From a virus (Duplodnaviria > Caudoviricetes): a DNA stretch of 64,000 bases. The translations under genes were made by a program, and so were the position numbers. This document shows, in pieces, positions 19,700 to 34,159 of this stretch. The notes beneath the pieces were generated by a model. It saw nothing but the letters and a program-made list of their open reading frames with translations, was not told where the DNA came from and ran no database searches. The stretch lies in the IMG/VR virus record IMGVR_UViG_3300031851_000001. One strand, written 5' to 3'. The number at the start of each line of letters is the position of its first letter. Within the stretch, counting starts at the first letter, position 1.

Positions 19700-20938
19700 A
19701 TGAAGCGTTTTCAGGAATTTGTCACAGAAGCGAAACGCGGTGGCGCAAAGAAAAACCAAGTAAGTGCCACTGATATGGAAGCGGTTATCGTTGTTGCTTT
19801 CAACGGTGGTTGGGACAAAGCCAAAGATACATACGGTTTAAAACAAAATACATATGAAATTGGCGCTCCAATTGCAGAAAAAATTGCTGATGATATTAGA
19901 AAAACAACCAAGGCTTCTGCGAACTCACTAATACATTTTGGTTCTGGCGCAGGTCAGTTAAATCCAAAATGGTTAGGTTCCAATGGTACTCCTAAAACTG
20001 ATTTATATTCAACAGACGGTATAAACATATCACTTAAACAAAAAGGTGGTTCTCAAGTTATGTCTGGATATAAAGAAGAAACAATTTCTACATTCTATGC
20101 AGCGATGGATAGTATGGGAGATAAAGCTCCTAAAGAAATTAATAAATTAGTAGCACAATTGGATCCTGTTCTCAAAAAGATTACTGTACCCGGAAATGTT
20201 AATACAATTATTAACTCAATCAAAGGTAAATCAATGCCTAAAGGTGTTAAAGCACAAGTAGGTAATAGTAAACGTGTAATGGACATTAAGTTTGATAAAA
20301 GAGAATATGCTGCCAAGCAAGCAGAAATTGTCGACTGGAAAAACTCAATGAAGGAACTCAACCCAGTGTTTAGAGAATTCTTTGAGGACAACCAAGAGTT
20401 TAGACGATACTTTGTATATGAAGCAGCTACTGGTGATTTTAAATTTGCCCCGGATAAATATGCTAACTCAAATTGGATGGTAGAGTTTGACCCTGCGTCT
20501 GGTACTAATAATAACATTGTCCAACTATCATTAGGCAATAACATACCGGCACCTTTTATTGATAAGCTAGCTAAAAAAGTTCAAGTTAGAATATCTCCAA
20601 AAACACCAACAGGTTCAAAAGTATCTGCGCAAGGTACATCATCAACTGTTGGATCGTTTAGATTAACAGTGGCTGAAAACAAAGGCGGGTTTGATACATT
20701 TGAAACAATGATGATAAGAGAACAAGCAAAGTTTACTGAGTCATTATTAACTGAAGATGTGTTAACTGAAGCAGGATTGTTTAGTAAACTTAAAACATGG
20801 TTATCTAAATTATATTACAAAGTAATTAAAAAGATTAAACAAATTGCTAAACTAGGATACGAAGCGTTATTATCGTTTTTCCAATTTGAAGTAAGCAAAG
20901 TTGATACAAAAGGCCTACAACAGTTTGGATTTAAATAA
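19700..20938 (+). CDS. putative internal head protein with PD-(D/E)XK nuclease-like motif
   Basis: N-terminus MKRFQEFVTE; TPKTD-x7-ISLK motif; late promoter. Confidence 0.5.
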   Translation: MKRFQEFVTEAKRGGAKKNQVSATDMEAVIVVAFNGGWDKAKDTYGLKQNTYEIGAPIAEKIADDIRKTTKASANSLIHFGSGAGQLNPKWLGSNGTPKTDLYSTDGINISLKQKGGSQVMSGYKEETISTFYAAMDSMGDKAPKEINKLVAQLDPVLKKITVPGNVNTIINSIKGKSMPKGVKAQVGNSKRVMDIKFDKREYAAKQAEIVDWKNSMKELNPVFREFFEDNQEFRRYFVYEAATGDFKFAPDKYANSNWMVEFDPASGTNNNIVQLSLGNNIPAPFIDKLAKKVQVRISPKTPTGSKVSAQGTSSTVGSFRLTVAENKGGFDTFETMMIREQAKFTESLLTEDVLTEAGLFSKLKTWLSKLYYKVIKKIKQIAKLGYEALLSFFQFEVSKVDTKGLQQFGFK

Positions 20939-22168
20939 ATGTTAAGTTTTAAAAATTACCTCGCTGAGGAAAAGAATGTTCATATGGAGCATCTTGAAGA
21001 CTCGATTTTAAACCTTGGTGTTGATGGTACACGTTCTGCTATTAATTTCCTTAGAGCATTAAGAGATATGCTACAAGGTAGTTCAAAATCTAAAGTTAAC
21101 GTATCAGTTAAATGGGACGGAGCACCTGCTATATTTGCGGGCGTTGATCCAAGCGACAAAAAATTCTTTGTTGCTAAAAAGGGTATTTTTAATAAGAACC
21201 CTAAAGTATATAAAACCGCCGCTGATGTCGATGCAGACACCAAAGGCGATTTAGCAGTGAAATTAAAACTAGCCTTGGAAGAGTTTCCTAAACTTGGTAT
21301 CAAAGGTGTAGTACAAGGTGACTTTCTATATGATAAAAAAGATCTCAAGATATTGGACATTAAGGGTGAACCGCATGTTACTTTCCATCCTAATACGATC
21401 GTATACGCGGTACCTTCGGCATCAGACCTCGGTAAACAAATACTCAAATCCAAAATCGGAGTGGTCTGGCATACGGTATACAGAGGACGTAGCTTTGAAG
21501 AAATGTCTGCAAGTTTTGGAGAGGAGATTGCATCAAGCCTCAAAACAACGAAAACGTGCTGGTCGGTAGACGCGGTATATAGAGACGTTTCAGGCACGGC
21601 AACGATGACGGCTGCAGAGACTGAAAAGGTTAATAAAATATTATCGGCTGCAGGAACTTTATTTCAAAAAATAAAACCAGCAACTCTAAACGGCGTAGCA
21701 AACAATCCTGACACGCTAATGCGGACAAAAACATTTGTTAATACTAAAATTAGAGCTGGTGAAAAGATACGTAACACTCGTATGTTTGTAAAAGATTTAG
21801 AAAAGTATATTGATGATATATACGAAAAAGAAGCTGGCAAACGAAAAACCGATAAAGGTAAAAGAGCACAACGAGTTAAAAAAGATGCTACATTAGAATA
21901 CTTTAAGAAAACATCAACAAAAGAATTAGTTGCTATGTTTGATTTGTATAACTTGCTCATAGATGCCAAACTTTTAATCATAAAGAAACTCGACAAAGCT
22001 GGTGGTTTAACAACGTTCCTTAAAACAGCTGACGGGCTTCAAGTAACAGGGCAAGAAGGCTTTGTTGCTATTGACCACATGGGTAAAACCGCAGTTAAGC
22101 TTGTTGACAGACTTGACTTTAGTAATGCTAATTTTAACGACAAGTATATTAAAGGGTGGGACAAATAA
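20939..22168 (+). CDS. conserved T4-like protein (DUF6267-like) with ATP-dependent ligase-type motifs
   Basis: MLSFKNYLAE; HMEHLED; VKWDGAP (KxDG), QGDF, QEGFV, AVKLVDR. Confidence 0.55.
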   Translation: MLSFKNYLAEEKNVHMEHLEDSILNLGVDGTRSAINFLRALRDMLQGSSKSKVNVSVKWDGAPAIFAGVDPSDKKFFVAKKGIFNKNPKVYKTAADVDADTKGDLAVKLKLALEEFPKLGIKGVVQGDFLYDKKDLKILDIKGEPHVTFHPNTIVYAVPSASDLGKQILKSKIGVVWHTVYRGRSFEEMSASFGEEIASSLKTTKTCWSVDAVYRDVSGTATMTAAETEKVNKILSAAGTLFQKIKPATLNGVANNPDTLMRTKTFVNTKIRAGEKIRNTRMFVKDLEKYIDDIYEKEAGKRKTDKGKRAQRVKKDATLEYFKKTSTKELVAMFDLYNLLIDAKLLIIKKLDKAGGLTTFLKTADGLQVTGQEGFVAIDHMGKTAVKLVDRLDFSNANFNDKYIKGWDK

Positions 22169-22503
22169 TGGCATGGGTTGACGTACCAGGATCACCAACA
22201 GTTTTAGTGGGTGGAACACCTACTGCGATTTGGCAATATGATAATGCTCCTGTTTTAGGCACATTGGTAAACGCGAATGCAAAGGTCCAAGACGATCCTA
22301 ATGTTGGCCCTACTGACCAATATTACCGCGCTAACGGAACCGTAACTGCAGGGATTAGATCCTTTACACCAACAGGTGGTCCTATACAAGAAACATATGT
22401 AAAATGTAAAAAGGTTCAACCAACTGGAAAAATTTATACTGATTCCAACACAAACGGTCCTTGGTCTGAATTAAACAAAAACTATTATGACGGAAAAATT
22501 TAA
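22168..22503 (+). CDS. hypothetical protein, possibly structural
   Basis: TAATG coupling to the previous gene; Gly/Pro/Thr-rich. Confidence 0.6.
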   Translation: MAWVDVPGSPTVLVGGTPTAIWQYDNAPVLGTLVNANAKVQDDPNVGPTDQYYRANGTVTAGIRSFTPTGGPIQETYVKCKKVQPTGKIYTDSNTNGPWSELNKNYYDGKI

Positions 22504-22519
22504 GAGGTAGGCAAGAGCA

Positions 22520-23305
22520 ATGGCTATTTGGAACAAATTAACTCAAGCATATTTACAAGGTAATAAAACTTTATTTGAAGCGTTTATGCTGGCAGATAAA
22601 GATGGTAATATCATCAATACATTTGGTTCGGCGTCTAATATTCCAATTGCTGCAGGGCAAGTAGAAGGCTATTCACATATTAATAAGTTCGGTCATACAG
22701 GTGCCGATATTAATGGTACGACTACTATTTGGGATGGTTCAAATGGTGTATATACTTGGCCAACCGCAGCGGGCGTAGTTACAGTTGCTTCTTCATCTCA
22801 ATCTGGTGAAACAGTTGTGGTTGAAGGTCTTGATGTAAATTATAATATCATATCAGAAGAAACAACAATTGGTGGAACAACTACCGCAGAGTTTTATCGT
22901 ATCTATCGTGCATATATGACAGGCGACCAAAATGAGAATGATGTTACCTTCTCAATTGGTGGAACATCATACGCTATTATCCTAGCAGATAACGGTCAAA
23001 CTTTGATGACGACCTATACAGTTCCTGCTGGTAAAACGGCTTACCTAATGCAATTAACTTGCACAATGGATAAAGCAAATGCTCCAACATACTTTAGATT
23101 AATGTCACGCCCAGTTGATAATGGAACTTCGTTTAATATCAAATCACAGCTTGGATCACAAGGTGGTAATCCAGTAAACTTTGAATATGCTGTACCCCTT
23201 AGGTTTCCAGAAAAAACTGACATTAAAGTTGATGTTATTACTCAAGGTGCAGTTGGTGTTGGTGCAACTTACGATCTTATATTAGTGGATAATCCTACTC
23301 CATAA
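22520..23305 (+). CDS. putative virion structural protein
   Basis: Beta-rich Thr/Gly/Val composition; HINKFG, YTVPAGKTAYL, FPEKTDI patterns seen in marine phage structural proteins. Confidence 0.5.
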   Translation: MAIWNKLTQAYLQGNKTLFEAFMLADKDGNIINTFGSASNIPIAAGQVEGYSHINKFGHTGADINGTTTIWDGSNGVYTWPTAAGVVTVASSSQSGETVVVEGLDVNYNIISEETTIGGTTTAEFYRIYRAYMTGDQNENDVTFSIGGTSYAIILADNGQTLMTTYTVPAGKTAYLMQLTCTMDKANAPTYFRLMSRPVDNGTSFNIKSQLGSQGGNPVNFEYAVPLRFPEKTDIKVDVITQGAVGVGATYDLILVDNPTP

Positions 23306-33457: not shown

Positions 33458-33463
33458 TTATTT

Positions 33464-33471
33464 TATAAATA
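33464..33471 (+). promoter_or_regulatory. T4-type late promoter
   Basis: TATAAATA. Confidence 0.65.
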
Positions 33472-33499
33472 GACAGTAATATATCTAAAGGAAATCACA

Positions 33500-34159
33500 A
33501 TGAAACGGTTTAAGACACATTTTAACGAAGCTAAAGACACACATTGTTCAGACAAGTGTTGTGGCGCTGATGTAAAAGCAGAAGATTGTGATTGCCCTGC
33601 TGATTGCGCTCACTGTAATTGTAATGCCAAGAATGAAGCGTTTGACCCTAAACATCCAAAGGTTGTAGCTGCTCGTAAAGCTGTTAAAAACGGTACTTAT
33701 AATGGTAATATGGATACGAATGGTAATGCTATTGTACACATTGATGGTAAACCTCATACAGTAACTAAAGGCGATCCTGCTGCAAAGAATGAAGCAACTA
33801 ACGAAGACATTATTGCTATTATTAACGAACATAATATTACTCTAGAACAATTAGAGAATATGACCGAAGAAGAACTTAACGAATTACTAGGAAAAGCAAT
33901 TGGTGGCGTGGCTAAGGTTATTGGTGGGGTTGCCAAAGGCGCCGGAAGATTGGCGGGCGCAGGTATTAAACGAGCAGTAATGACAAAGCAAGGTAGTATT
34001 CGTGGTACTAAGGCTGCAAAACAAGATAAAGCAGGCGATAGAGCAGAAAAAATGGCTAGAGAAAGAGAAAAAGAATTCAAGCGCAAAAAGCGGATTTCTG
34101 ACATGAAGCAAAGAGCTAGTGACTTGGATCAAAAAATCTCTGACTTAAATAATAAATAA
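33500..34159 (+). CDS. modular putative internal head protein with Cys-rich segment
   Basis: MKRFKTHFNE; HCSDKCC...CDCPADCAHCNCN. Confidence 0.6.
   Translation: MKRFKTHFNEAKDTHCSDKCCGADVKAEDCDCPADCAHCNCNAKNEAFDPKHPKVVAARKAVKNGTYNGNMDTNGNAIVHIDGKPHTVTKGDPAAKNEATNEDIIAIINEHNITLEQLENMTEEELNELLGKAIGGVAKVIGGVAKGAGRLAGAGIKRAVMTKQGSIRGTKAAKQDKAGDRAEKMAREREKEFKRKKRISDMKQRASDLDQKISDLNNK

Follow-up and report, generated by a model that had tools for sequence, protein, structure and literature searches.

What does it mean when nine proteins that otherwise lack similarity to one another begin with nearly the same ten amino acids? The question is raised by a 64-kb stretch of viral DNA (64,000 nucleotides, called here the window), which is part of an 81.9-kb IMG/VR virus record, IMGVR_UViG_3300031851_000001, estimated to be 38% complete. 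Judged by its genes the source is a marine T4-like myovirus, and the nine proteins are encoded in a cassette, positions 19700-34159 of the window, that fills the variable block between gp41 and gp61. We propose that the shared N-terminus, or leader, is probably a capsid-targeting sequence (CTS) of the T4 type, which would load many distinct cargoes into the head, with the mature basic proteins leaving together with the DNA and the enzymes among them acting at entry. Packaging of the cargoes in the head appears well supported by indirect evidence, while from analogy with T4 we infer their ejection into the host and a role in counter-defence or takeover.

A leader shared by otherwise unrelated proteins

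A preliminary description of the window had named nine N-termini of this kind, and all nine were recovered at the same coordinates when the list of open reading frames (ORFs) was combined with a six-frame regular-expression scan. The genes that open with the leader are listed below, a slash marking the predicted cut.

19700-20938, + strand: leader MKRFQEFVTE/A and a 412-residue basic protein with a predicted MspI/HhaI/HaeIII-like type II restriction-endonuclease fold and a C-terminal helical tail (AlphaFold2, Foldseek, VIA)
20939-22168, + strand: leader MLSFKNYLAE/E and DUF6267, read as an RNA-ligase-like covalent nucleotidyltransferase (Pfam PF19782, E 1e-112)
30115-30690, + strand: leader MKKFKQHVQS (no Glu10; next candidate site PMEE/A, residue 34) and a 191-residue protein with a CW-x-THKQVG...VPNCVPK module, isoelectric point (pI) 6.6 (ORF, PHROG)
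30692-31138, + strand: leader (GTG)LRFKQYMTE/Y and a 148-residue basic protein (regular-expression scan, ORF)
31131-31895, + strand: leader MIRFKRYITE/S and a 254-residue basic protein, 16% histidine (regular-expression scan, ORF)
31900-32256, + strand: leader MKSFKVHLNE/A and a 118-residue basic protein (regular-expression scan, ORF)
32256-32813, + strand: long leader MKRFKEFTSHDLNE/S and a SpoT/MESH1-type HD small alarmone hydrolase (Pfam HD_4, PDB matches)
32813-33457, + strand: leader MKSFKTHISE/L and a 214-residue very basic protein (pI 10.1) with a conserved C-terminal module, PHROG 7595 (PHROG)
33500-34159, + strand: leader MKRFKTHFNE/A and a 219-residue protein with an N-terminal Cys cluster, a Gly/Ala-rich part and then a charged helical tail (ORF)

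The leaders follow the consensus M-[K/L/I]-x-F-[K/Q]-x-[F/Y/H]-[hydrophobic]-x-E. Phe4 is present in all nine, as is Phe, Tyr or His at position 7, and hydrophobic-x-E ends at residue 10 in seven; the alarmone hydrolase at 32256 has LNE at 14. The leader at 30692 rests on a GTG start, and relatives have TTG-started copies of the same leader, while that at 31131 rests on the second in-frame ATG, which overlaps the upstream stop and has GGAG 9-12 nt upstream. The cassette holds a tenth gene, at 27767, and beyond the leader its ten cargoes show no pairwise similarity (all BLASTP E > 0.4), in agreement with the claim that the proteins are otherwise unrelated. Nine of the ten products have a pI of 8.7-10.1. 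In the AlphaFold models of the 19700 and 20939 products the leader is a low-confidence appendage before well-folded domains.

The T4 internal proteins IPI, IPII and IPIII carry a CTS (Mullaney and Black 1996, reviewed in PMC9026906 and PMC3012670), where residues 4 and 7 are the main determinants of targeting, and residues 8 and 10 those of processing (PMC9026906). These are the positions conserved in the window, and the leader matches the functional determinants of the T4 CTS. The T4 leaders taken from NC_000866 are MKTYQEFIAE/A for IPIII and MKTFKEFTSTTTPVSTITE/A for IPI. The leader at 19700 differs from that of IPIII by conservative changes only, while that at 32256 has 8 of its first 9 residues identical to IPI and is, like IPI, a long form ending in hydrophobic-x-Glu. 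In both systems the N-terminal decapeptide is aromatic at positions 4 and 7 and hydrophobic at 8, with Glu10 followed by a small residue, and in both the locus is hypervariable and the proteins are mutually unrelated and basic, as T4 internal proteins are described to be (PMC9026906). The genes, late in T4, are putatively late in the window, and relatives of the window phage encode a T4-type prohead protease. The differences are that position 4 is Phe in the window where T4 has Tyr, with a preference for Lys5, that the cassette has ten genes compared with three in T4, and that its cargo is mostly large (118-783 residues) and partly enzymatic, unlike the small T4 internal proteins (IPI, 95 residues). 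One cargo of the window, again unlike T4, has a 31-residue extension in front of its embedded leader, and leader-like sites further inside as well. Packaging and cleavage are shown for the T4 CTS and predicted for the leaders of the window.

The leader genes had been placed behind late promoters, and the T4-type late-promoter consensus TATAAATA is found at the three sites proposed:

19663-19670, + strand: late-promoter consensus TATAAATA, 37 nt upstream of the first leader gene
27727-27734, + strand: late-promoter consensus TATAAATA, 40 nt upstream of the ATG at 27767
33464-33471, + strand: late-promoter consensus TATAAATA, 36 nt upstream of the ATG at 33500

In each case the distance is to the first ATG of a block (19700, 27767 and 33500), giving three putative late transcription units between the gp41 helicase gene and the lysis and gp61 primase genes. 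The number of TATAAATA copies in the window is not above chance (16 seen, compared with 11.4 +/- 3.6 expected from shuffles), so only their placement counts as informative.

One candidate member was rejected. The ORF at 9547-9918 of the genome, 4.4 kb upstream of the window, opens with MKKFKLYQIQ, which is a near miss: it has a sigma70-type promoter, lacks the position 8 and 10 determinants and is unlike the basic cargo proteins. It shows that MKKFK alone is insufficient to define the leader.

Prohead protease and virion proteomes of relatives

Peptidase_S77, the family of T4 gp21, was found in all five of the larger relatives tested, including Methylophilales phage Melnitz and a complete 194.6-kb relative, G001. 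In the G001 major capsid protein, two hydrophobic-x-Glu sites lie in the N-terminal region, at residues 47 and 61; these sites are compatible with cutting of the gp21 type and prove nothing.

The tenth gene of the cassette, which has no leader at its N-terminus, connects the leader with published virion proteomes. Its features are:

27767-30118, + strand: 783-residue multi-module protein with an N-terminal extension, a TxGH-type nucleotidyltransferase ('cytidylyltransferase', T4-GC190 homologue), basic linkers and DUF5824 (hidden Markov model matches)
27860-27928, + strand: embedded leader KLQSFKGF...TLAE/AA, residues 32-54 (alignment with the Melnitz homologue)
28889-28921, + strand: internal leader-like M-NTQFQNFMTE/K, residues 375-385, with NTQFQNFMTE at 376-385 (sequence inspection)

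The protein matches PHROG 3041 'cytidyltransferase' (E 5e-85) and DUF5824 (E 3e-15) and has ITVGH and SGTKMR motifs; the Pfam family CTP_transf_like scores 19.6 bits, below its cut-off of 21, and a sequence search of the PDB gave no match. It is 51% identical to its Melnitz homologue, whose N-terminal leader MKKFSEIIE/A aligns with residues 46-54 of the protein at 27767, ending in TLAE/A and preceded by KLQSFKGF. A hidden start codon that would place this leader at the N-terminus was rejected, the Leu codon being CTT. The second site, NTQFQNFMTE, is a candidate internal processing site or relic of gene fusion, and similar internal motifs occur in a large ORF of G001.

The cytidylyltransferase T4-GC190, a member of the cyanophage core, was detected by mass spectrometry in purified S-SM1 virions (Sullivan et al. 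2010, PMC3037559). The cytidylyltransferase ORF154 of S-CREM2 was likewise detected in virions in a 2023 study, where it is listed as non-structural and possibly encapsidated (PMC10665884). Both proteins are homologous to the nucleotidyltransferase domain of the window (E 1e-13 to 1e-34), and both open with the leader: MKKFSAFLNE/A in S-SM1 T4-GC190 and MKNFSSFLTE/A in S-CREM2 ORF154, with MKKFSAFLSE/A in gp184 of Syn9. The window protein has the nucleotidyltransferase domain, the gp41-gp61 neighbourhood and the leader in common with cyanophage T4-GC190, and differs in that it is a 783-residue multi-module protein whose leader is embedded.

A term search of the paper on S-SM1 (PMC3037559) found no mention of 'capsid targeting' or of internal proteins; 'capsid targeting sequence' together with 'cyanophage' returned only a T4 review, and the S-CREM2 paper does not contain the phrase. 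We found no paper linking the CTS to cyanophages or pelagiphages, in a search that most subscription journals lie outside and that is therefore no proof. In the supplementary table of the S-SM1 proteome, the DUF6267 homologue could not be mapped.

Predicted enzymes among the cargoes

Enzyme motifs had been reported in several of the proteins, and four cargoes bear this out: one that is restriction-endonuclease-like, one ligase-like, the nucleotidyltransferase described above and an alarmone hydrolase. The AlphaFold2 model of the 19700 protein (pLDDT 85.5, leader disordered) matches MspI with a Foldseek E of 1.7e-3 (prob 1.0), a clear outlier far above the next match, and with a VIA Z of 9.4 over 207 of 262 residues; the Z for HhaI is 6.4. 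Matches in AFDB include clusters with names of the HaeIII-family or restriction endonuclease kind, among them 'HaeIII family restriction endonuclease' with E 6.8e-4. On these model comparisons the protein is predicted to have the PD-(D/E)xK type II restriction endonuclease fold of the MspI/HhaI/HaeIII type. Its family comprises 156 clusters, in which matches to known domains are no more than sporadic, and the family profile found no sequence-level match in the PDB. D101, S111-L-K113 and E127 are invariant in the family and form a putative active site, which could not be mapped residue by residue onto MspI.

DUF6267, the cargo at 20939, belongs to a very large family with at least 2,620 representatives at 50% identity. 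Among 111 sequences of 36-54% identity, K58-x-D60-G61 is at least 90% conserved and E373-G374 and K387 are invariant, which corresponds to ligase motif I (KxDG, with the lysine nucleophile), motif IV (EG) and motif V (K). The AlphaFold2 model has a pLDDT of 94.3, and an exhaustive PDB search with it (48,161 chains) gave RNA ligases as the top eight matches, with 180-200 residues aligned and Z 7.0-8.6, where a Z below about 8 can reflect a common fold arrangement. Leading matches were 5cot (Z 8.6), 6n0t (7.9), 1xdn (7.8) and T4 Rnl2 (7.4), and the types represented are Naegleria nick-sealing ligase, tRNA ligases, trypanosome REL1 and T4 Rnl2, with DNA ligases next. A sequence search of the PDB gave no match. 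Because the RNA-ligase matches are uniform and are accompanied by the motifs, a ligase-type covalent nucleotidyltransferase is the best reading of DUF6267.

The protein at 32256 matches Pfam HD_4 with 59.9 bits (cut-off 27.2, E 3e-16) and, in the PDB, MESH1/HDDC3, the hydrolase domains of Rel and SpoT and a ppApp hydrolase (E 5e-15 to 1e-7). It corresponds to the N-terminal part of TIGR00691, and the HP, HD, ED and KLADR motifs are visible. By sequence it falls among the HD hydrolases of the RelA/SpoT homologues, as a small alarmone hydrolase. The hydrolase domain starts at residue 17, three residues after the predicted cut.

Pfam gave no family for six of the ten cargoes, and NCBIfam added only the RelA/SpoT match. 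The six cargoes without an assignable function include the 16%-histidine protein, the Cys-cluster protein and two with small modules (PHROGs 9737 and 7595), whose counterparts in Melnitz are parts of the nucleotidyltransferase protein. The CW-x-THKQVG...VPNCVPK module of the 30115 protein is also part of that Melnitz protein, and the PHROG 7595 module stands behind a leader in G001 as well.

These compositions bear on a different view of the cassette, in which the proteins packaged by the leader are mainly structural or charge-neutralising internal head proteins, serving DNA condensation or the scaffold core, and do not act as effectors in the host. It accounts for the basic character of nine of the ten products, some of them very rich in Lys or His, for the six that have no recognisable enzyme domain, and for one leader protein of G001 that is encoded in the head morphogenesis module, between portal and protease. 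The four enzyme-like cargoes, however, keep catalytic-type motifs in families that number hundreds to thousands of members: DUF6267 has KxDG, the endonuclease-like family D...SxK, the nucleotidyltransferase TxGH and the alarmone hydrolase HD. Such conservation is hard to explain for packing material, and the T4 precedents IPI* and Alt act in the host. We regard this view as unlikely.

It is more improbable again that the N-terminus is a signal unrelated to the capsid, such as a degron, a chaperone tag or an address to the membrane or cell pole. The leader is predicted to form a short amphipathic helix, and packaging in this phage is a prediction from its genes. Against it stand the residue-for-residue match to the T4 CTS at the genetically important positions, the homologues with leaders in purified virions and the G001 leader gene in the head module.

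Specificity, portability and selection on the peptide

If the leader is a CTS, its occurrence elsewhere can be compared with its place in the cassette. The consensus given in the preliminary description matches the window eight times in six frames, and seven of the matches lie at the start codons listed above. We then considered 80 related IMG/VR contigs, collected via their DUF6267 gene, with a motif that required only the four T4-critical positions. In their long reading frames there are 217 matches, of which 142 lie on start codons compared with about 11 expected (start codons make up 5.2% of the positions), and 141 of the 142 are on the gene strand. Nine ORFs of G001 open with the leader: the homologous cassette (23-40 kb) accounts for seven, another is situated between portal and prohead protease, and the last is 27 nt downstream of a further TATAAATA; 19 other matches are present, none at a start codon. 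A motif scan for enrichment had been suggested earlier, and across the fragment, G001 and the 80 contigs it finds the leader nearly confined to start codons of the late block. The refuting observation named there, a motif equally common in early and cytoplasmic genes, is not seen: no replication or metabolic gene has the leader.

The G001 protein encoded between the portal and prohead protease genes (98106-96556, minus strand) has 516 residues and the leader MKTFSKLLSE/V, with TATAAATA 47 nt upstream. It contains an acidic DPVGKEDDDIDNDGD module, which in Syn9 (gp185) and S-SM1 (gp191) is found in the gene adjoining the cytidylyltransferase.

Cargoes of 23 unrelated clusters carry the leader among the relatives. 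In 39 of 55 relatives a leader gene, drawn from 14 clusters in all, occupies the slot immediately upstream of DUF6267, a polymorphism that recalls the internal-protein loci of T-even phages. In both the DUF6267 and the endonuclease-like families some members have the leader and others start at the conserved core, as would be expected if the leader were a propeptide that can be removed and transferred. Many members of the endonuclease-like family have a different, longer N-terminal extension of about 30 residues, with the consensus MS-LQ-YVRQ-x-PR-x-ESY-x-P-x-[DE]K[IV]Q-x-FL-x-E, which ends in aromatic-hydrophobic-x-Glu. This extension may be a second class of leader in another phage lineage.

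A conserved nucleic acid could also place similar residues at the start of many genes, as a translation-initiation or regulatory RNA element or as a junction for recombination that swaps cassettes, with the peptide as a by-product. The first 15 nt are often ATGAAAnnnTTTAAA, coupling between the genes is tight and the slot before DUF6267 is hypervariable, all of which would fit. The codons do not: synonymous codons at Phe4, Lys5 and Glu10 follow the genome background, position 8 is Ile or Leu through six or more codons, and positions 2, 3, 7 and 8 vary in residue and codon while their chemical class is kept. Background codon use and the varied codons at position 8 indicate selection on the peptide, and the same peptide is also embedded inside a protein. 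We consider an origin in the nucleic acid highly improbable. Chance resemblance or an artefact of gene calling, which a short motif in an AT-rich genome and a TATAAATA count not above chance might suggest, has a negligible probability and is refuted by the position of seven of the eight window matches and 142 of the 217 in relatives on start codons of long ORFs, on one strand.

Genomic neighbourhood

Upstream of the cassette are replication genes of the T4 type, encoding the gp59 loader, gp32, UvsX and the gp41 helicase, and downstream are genes for lysis, gp61 primase, thymidylate synthase and ribonucleotide reductase. Gene order in Melnitz is identical, with UvsX, gp41, a block of hypothetical genes, gp61 and ribonucleotide reductase. 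A megablast search of the cassette against 50,697 phage records gave no match at the DNA level; relatives are visible at the protein level only. Stenotrophomonas phage DLP_6, phage C48C1, Melnitz and Pelagibacter phage HTVC008M are the nearest isolates in protein matches, and hundreds of T4-like cyanophages, which are more distant, come after them.

The leader genes are interrupted at 22168-27735 by about 5.5 kb of genes without a leader. Two ORFs follow DUF6267, one of them matching PHROG 8198 and, weakly, a family of virion structural proteins. Small membrane ORFs are also present, as are a plastocyanin/pseudoazurin-like ORF (24505-24927) and one that resembles a methyltransferase, and a further TATAAATA (25110) precedes ORFs of the sulfotransferase/glycosyltransferase-like kind. 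Directly 3' of the last leader gene, at 34197-35620, are small genes, all of which lack the leader. They are conserved in Melnitz, Syn9, S-SM1 and S-CREM2 (PHROGs 613 'head protein', 407 and 18642), and the C-terminal part of 34901-35620 may equal gp160 of S-CREM2, which has been detected in virions, a likeness judged by eye from short stretches without alignment.

Discussion

The steps set out here are drawn from sequence and from analogy with T4. The leader would dock each protein on the scaffolding core during assembly of the prohead, and a prohead protease of the gp21 type would cut after the Glu of hydrophobic-x-Glu, removing 10 residues; the predicted trimming is 14 residues for the alarmone hydrolase and about 54 for the nucleotidyltransferase. 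The mature, mostly basic proteins would stay with the packaged DNA and leave the head together with it at infection. Before phage transcription the enzymes could then act on nucleic acids, by cutting or repair, and clear alarmone signals at entry, which is the least supported step. Injection and counter-defence are plausible because T4 IPI* and Alt are analogous.

The earlier proposal that many cargoes are loaded through a T4-type CTS is well supported by the logic of the sequences, the late-type genes for basic proteins, the protease of the relatives and the homologues in virions. Several observations weigh against loading and takeover by this route. The 82-kb fragment, about 38% complete, contains no head genes and no prohead protease, and protease and scaffold are shown in relatives only. 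The virion proteome support comes from homologues in S-SM1 and S-CREM2 and not from this phage, and the cleavage sites in the marine relatives are sequence predictions. The S-CREM2 virion proteins gp155, gp156 and gp160, encoded next to ORF154, have no canonical leader, so the leader is not the sole route into the particle. Within the cassette, the 30115 protein lacks Glu10 and is not basic, its next candidate site being at residue 34, and the leader of the 27767 protein is embedded 31 residues from the N-terminus. The fold matches of DUF6267 are moderate (Z 7-8.6; Foldseek E 0.1-0.5).

The cassette had also been put forward as an undescribed system. That description is too strong: the loading mechanism would be the known one of T4, and reviews already suggest the CTS as perhaps a general means for T4-like phages to package varied proteins (PMC9026906). 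What is new is the probable occurrence of the CTS in T4-like phages of marine lineages, the enzymes among its cargo, a multi-module protein whose leader is embedded and an explanation for the cytidylyltransferase of virions.

Enzymes packaged in heads are known from other phages. The ADP-ribosyltransferase Alt of T4 is packaged, processed by gp21 and injected, and acts before transcription (PMC9026906). The proposed cargoes would resemble Alt as enzymes loaded into the head and processed by the prohead protease; they are of other enzyme classes, and Alt has its own propeptides at both termini in place of the decapeptide of the internal proteins. Giant phages offer a second comparison. Those of the phiKZ and SPN3US type have longer propeptides and another cleavage motif, and their proteins are not known to share a decapeptide. 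Published accounts describe many ejection or inner-body proteins that are packaged in the heads of phiKZ and SPN3US and cut by the prohead protease (PMC5694885, PMC7411985), and the same combination of many different head proteins and prohead protease cutting is proposed for the window.

Some of the cargo families occur together in single proteins. DUF6267 is found fused to TxGH nucleotidyltransferases (P0170, P0189), and the endonuclease-like domain is found inside a 'cytidyltransferase-like' protein (AFDB cluster entry A0A3B9BEH3). The G001 cassette encodes a leader-tagged P-loop kinase (L092:17744-18802; Pfam AAA_33 and Zeta_toxin; PHROG polynucleotide kinase, 'minor head protein'), and this kinase and the ligase-like DUF6267 recall the T4 repair pair of Pnk and RNA ligase. 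The fusions and the tagged kinase hint, speculatively, at a linked function of nucleic-acid cutting, end-healing and sealing. A tentative and rather doubtful extension is that the endonuclease-fold protein, DUF6267 and the TxGH nucleotidyltransferase form a pre-assembled, injected nucleic-acid set, which might cleave host nucleic acid that is unmodified, or mend phage DNA or host tRNA after damage by defence nucleases. The alarmone hydrolase injected beside it would cancel stringent or abortive-infection responses based on (p)ppGpp or ppApp at entry, and the whole would be a widespread, transcription-free counter-defence of marine T4-like phages.

T4-like myoviruses that infect cyanobacteria, SAR11 and methylotrophs rank with the ocean's most abundant viruses. 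If the ten-residue tag predicts head cargo, sequence alone could reveal, for thousands of uncultured phages, which proteins are packaged and injected, and the leader would explain why a 'cytidylyltransferase' appears repeatedly in cyanophage virion proteomes. DUF6267 gains a biochemical assignment that can be tested, and a cellular setting. N4 virion RNA polymerase and P1 Dar are further examples of proteins that act on the host before phage genes are expressed, and the cassette points to enzymes that may belong to this class, which is known from few model phages, such as T4 with IPI* and Alt.

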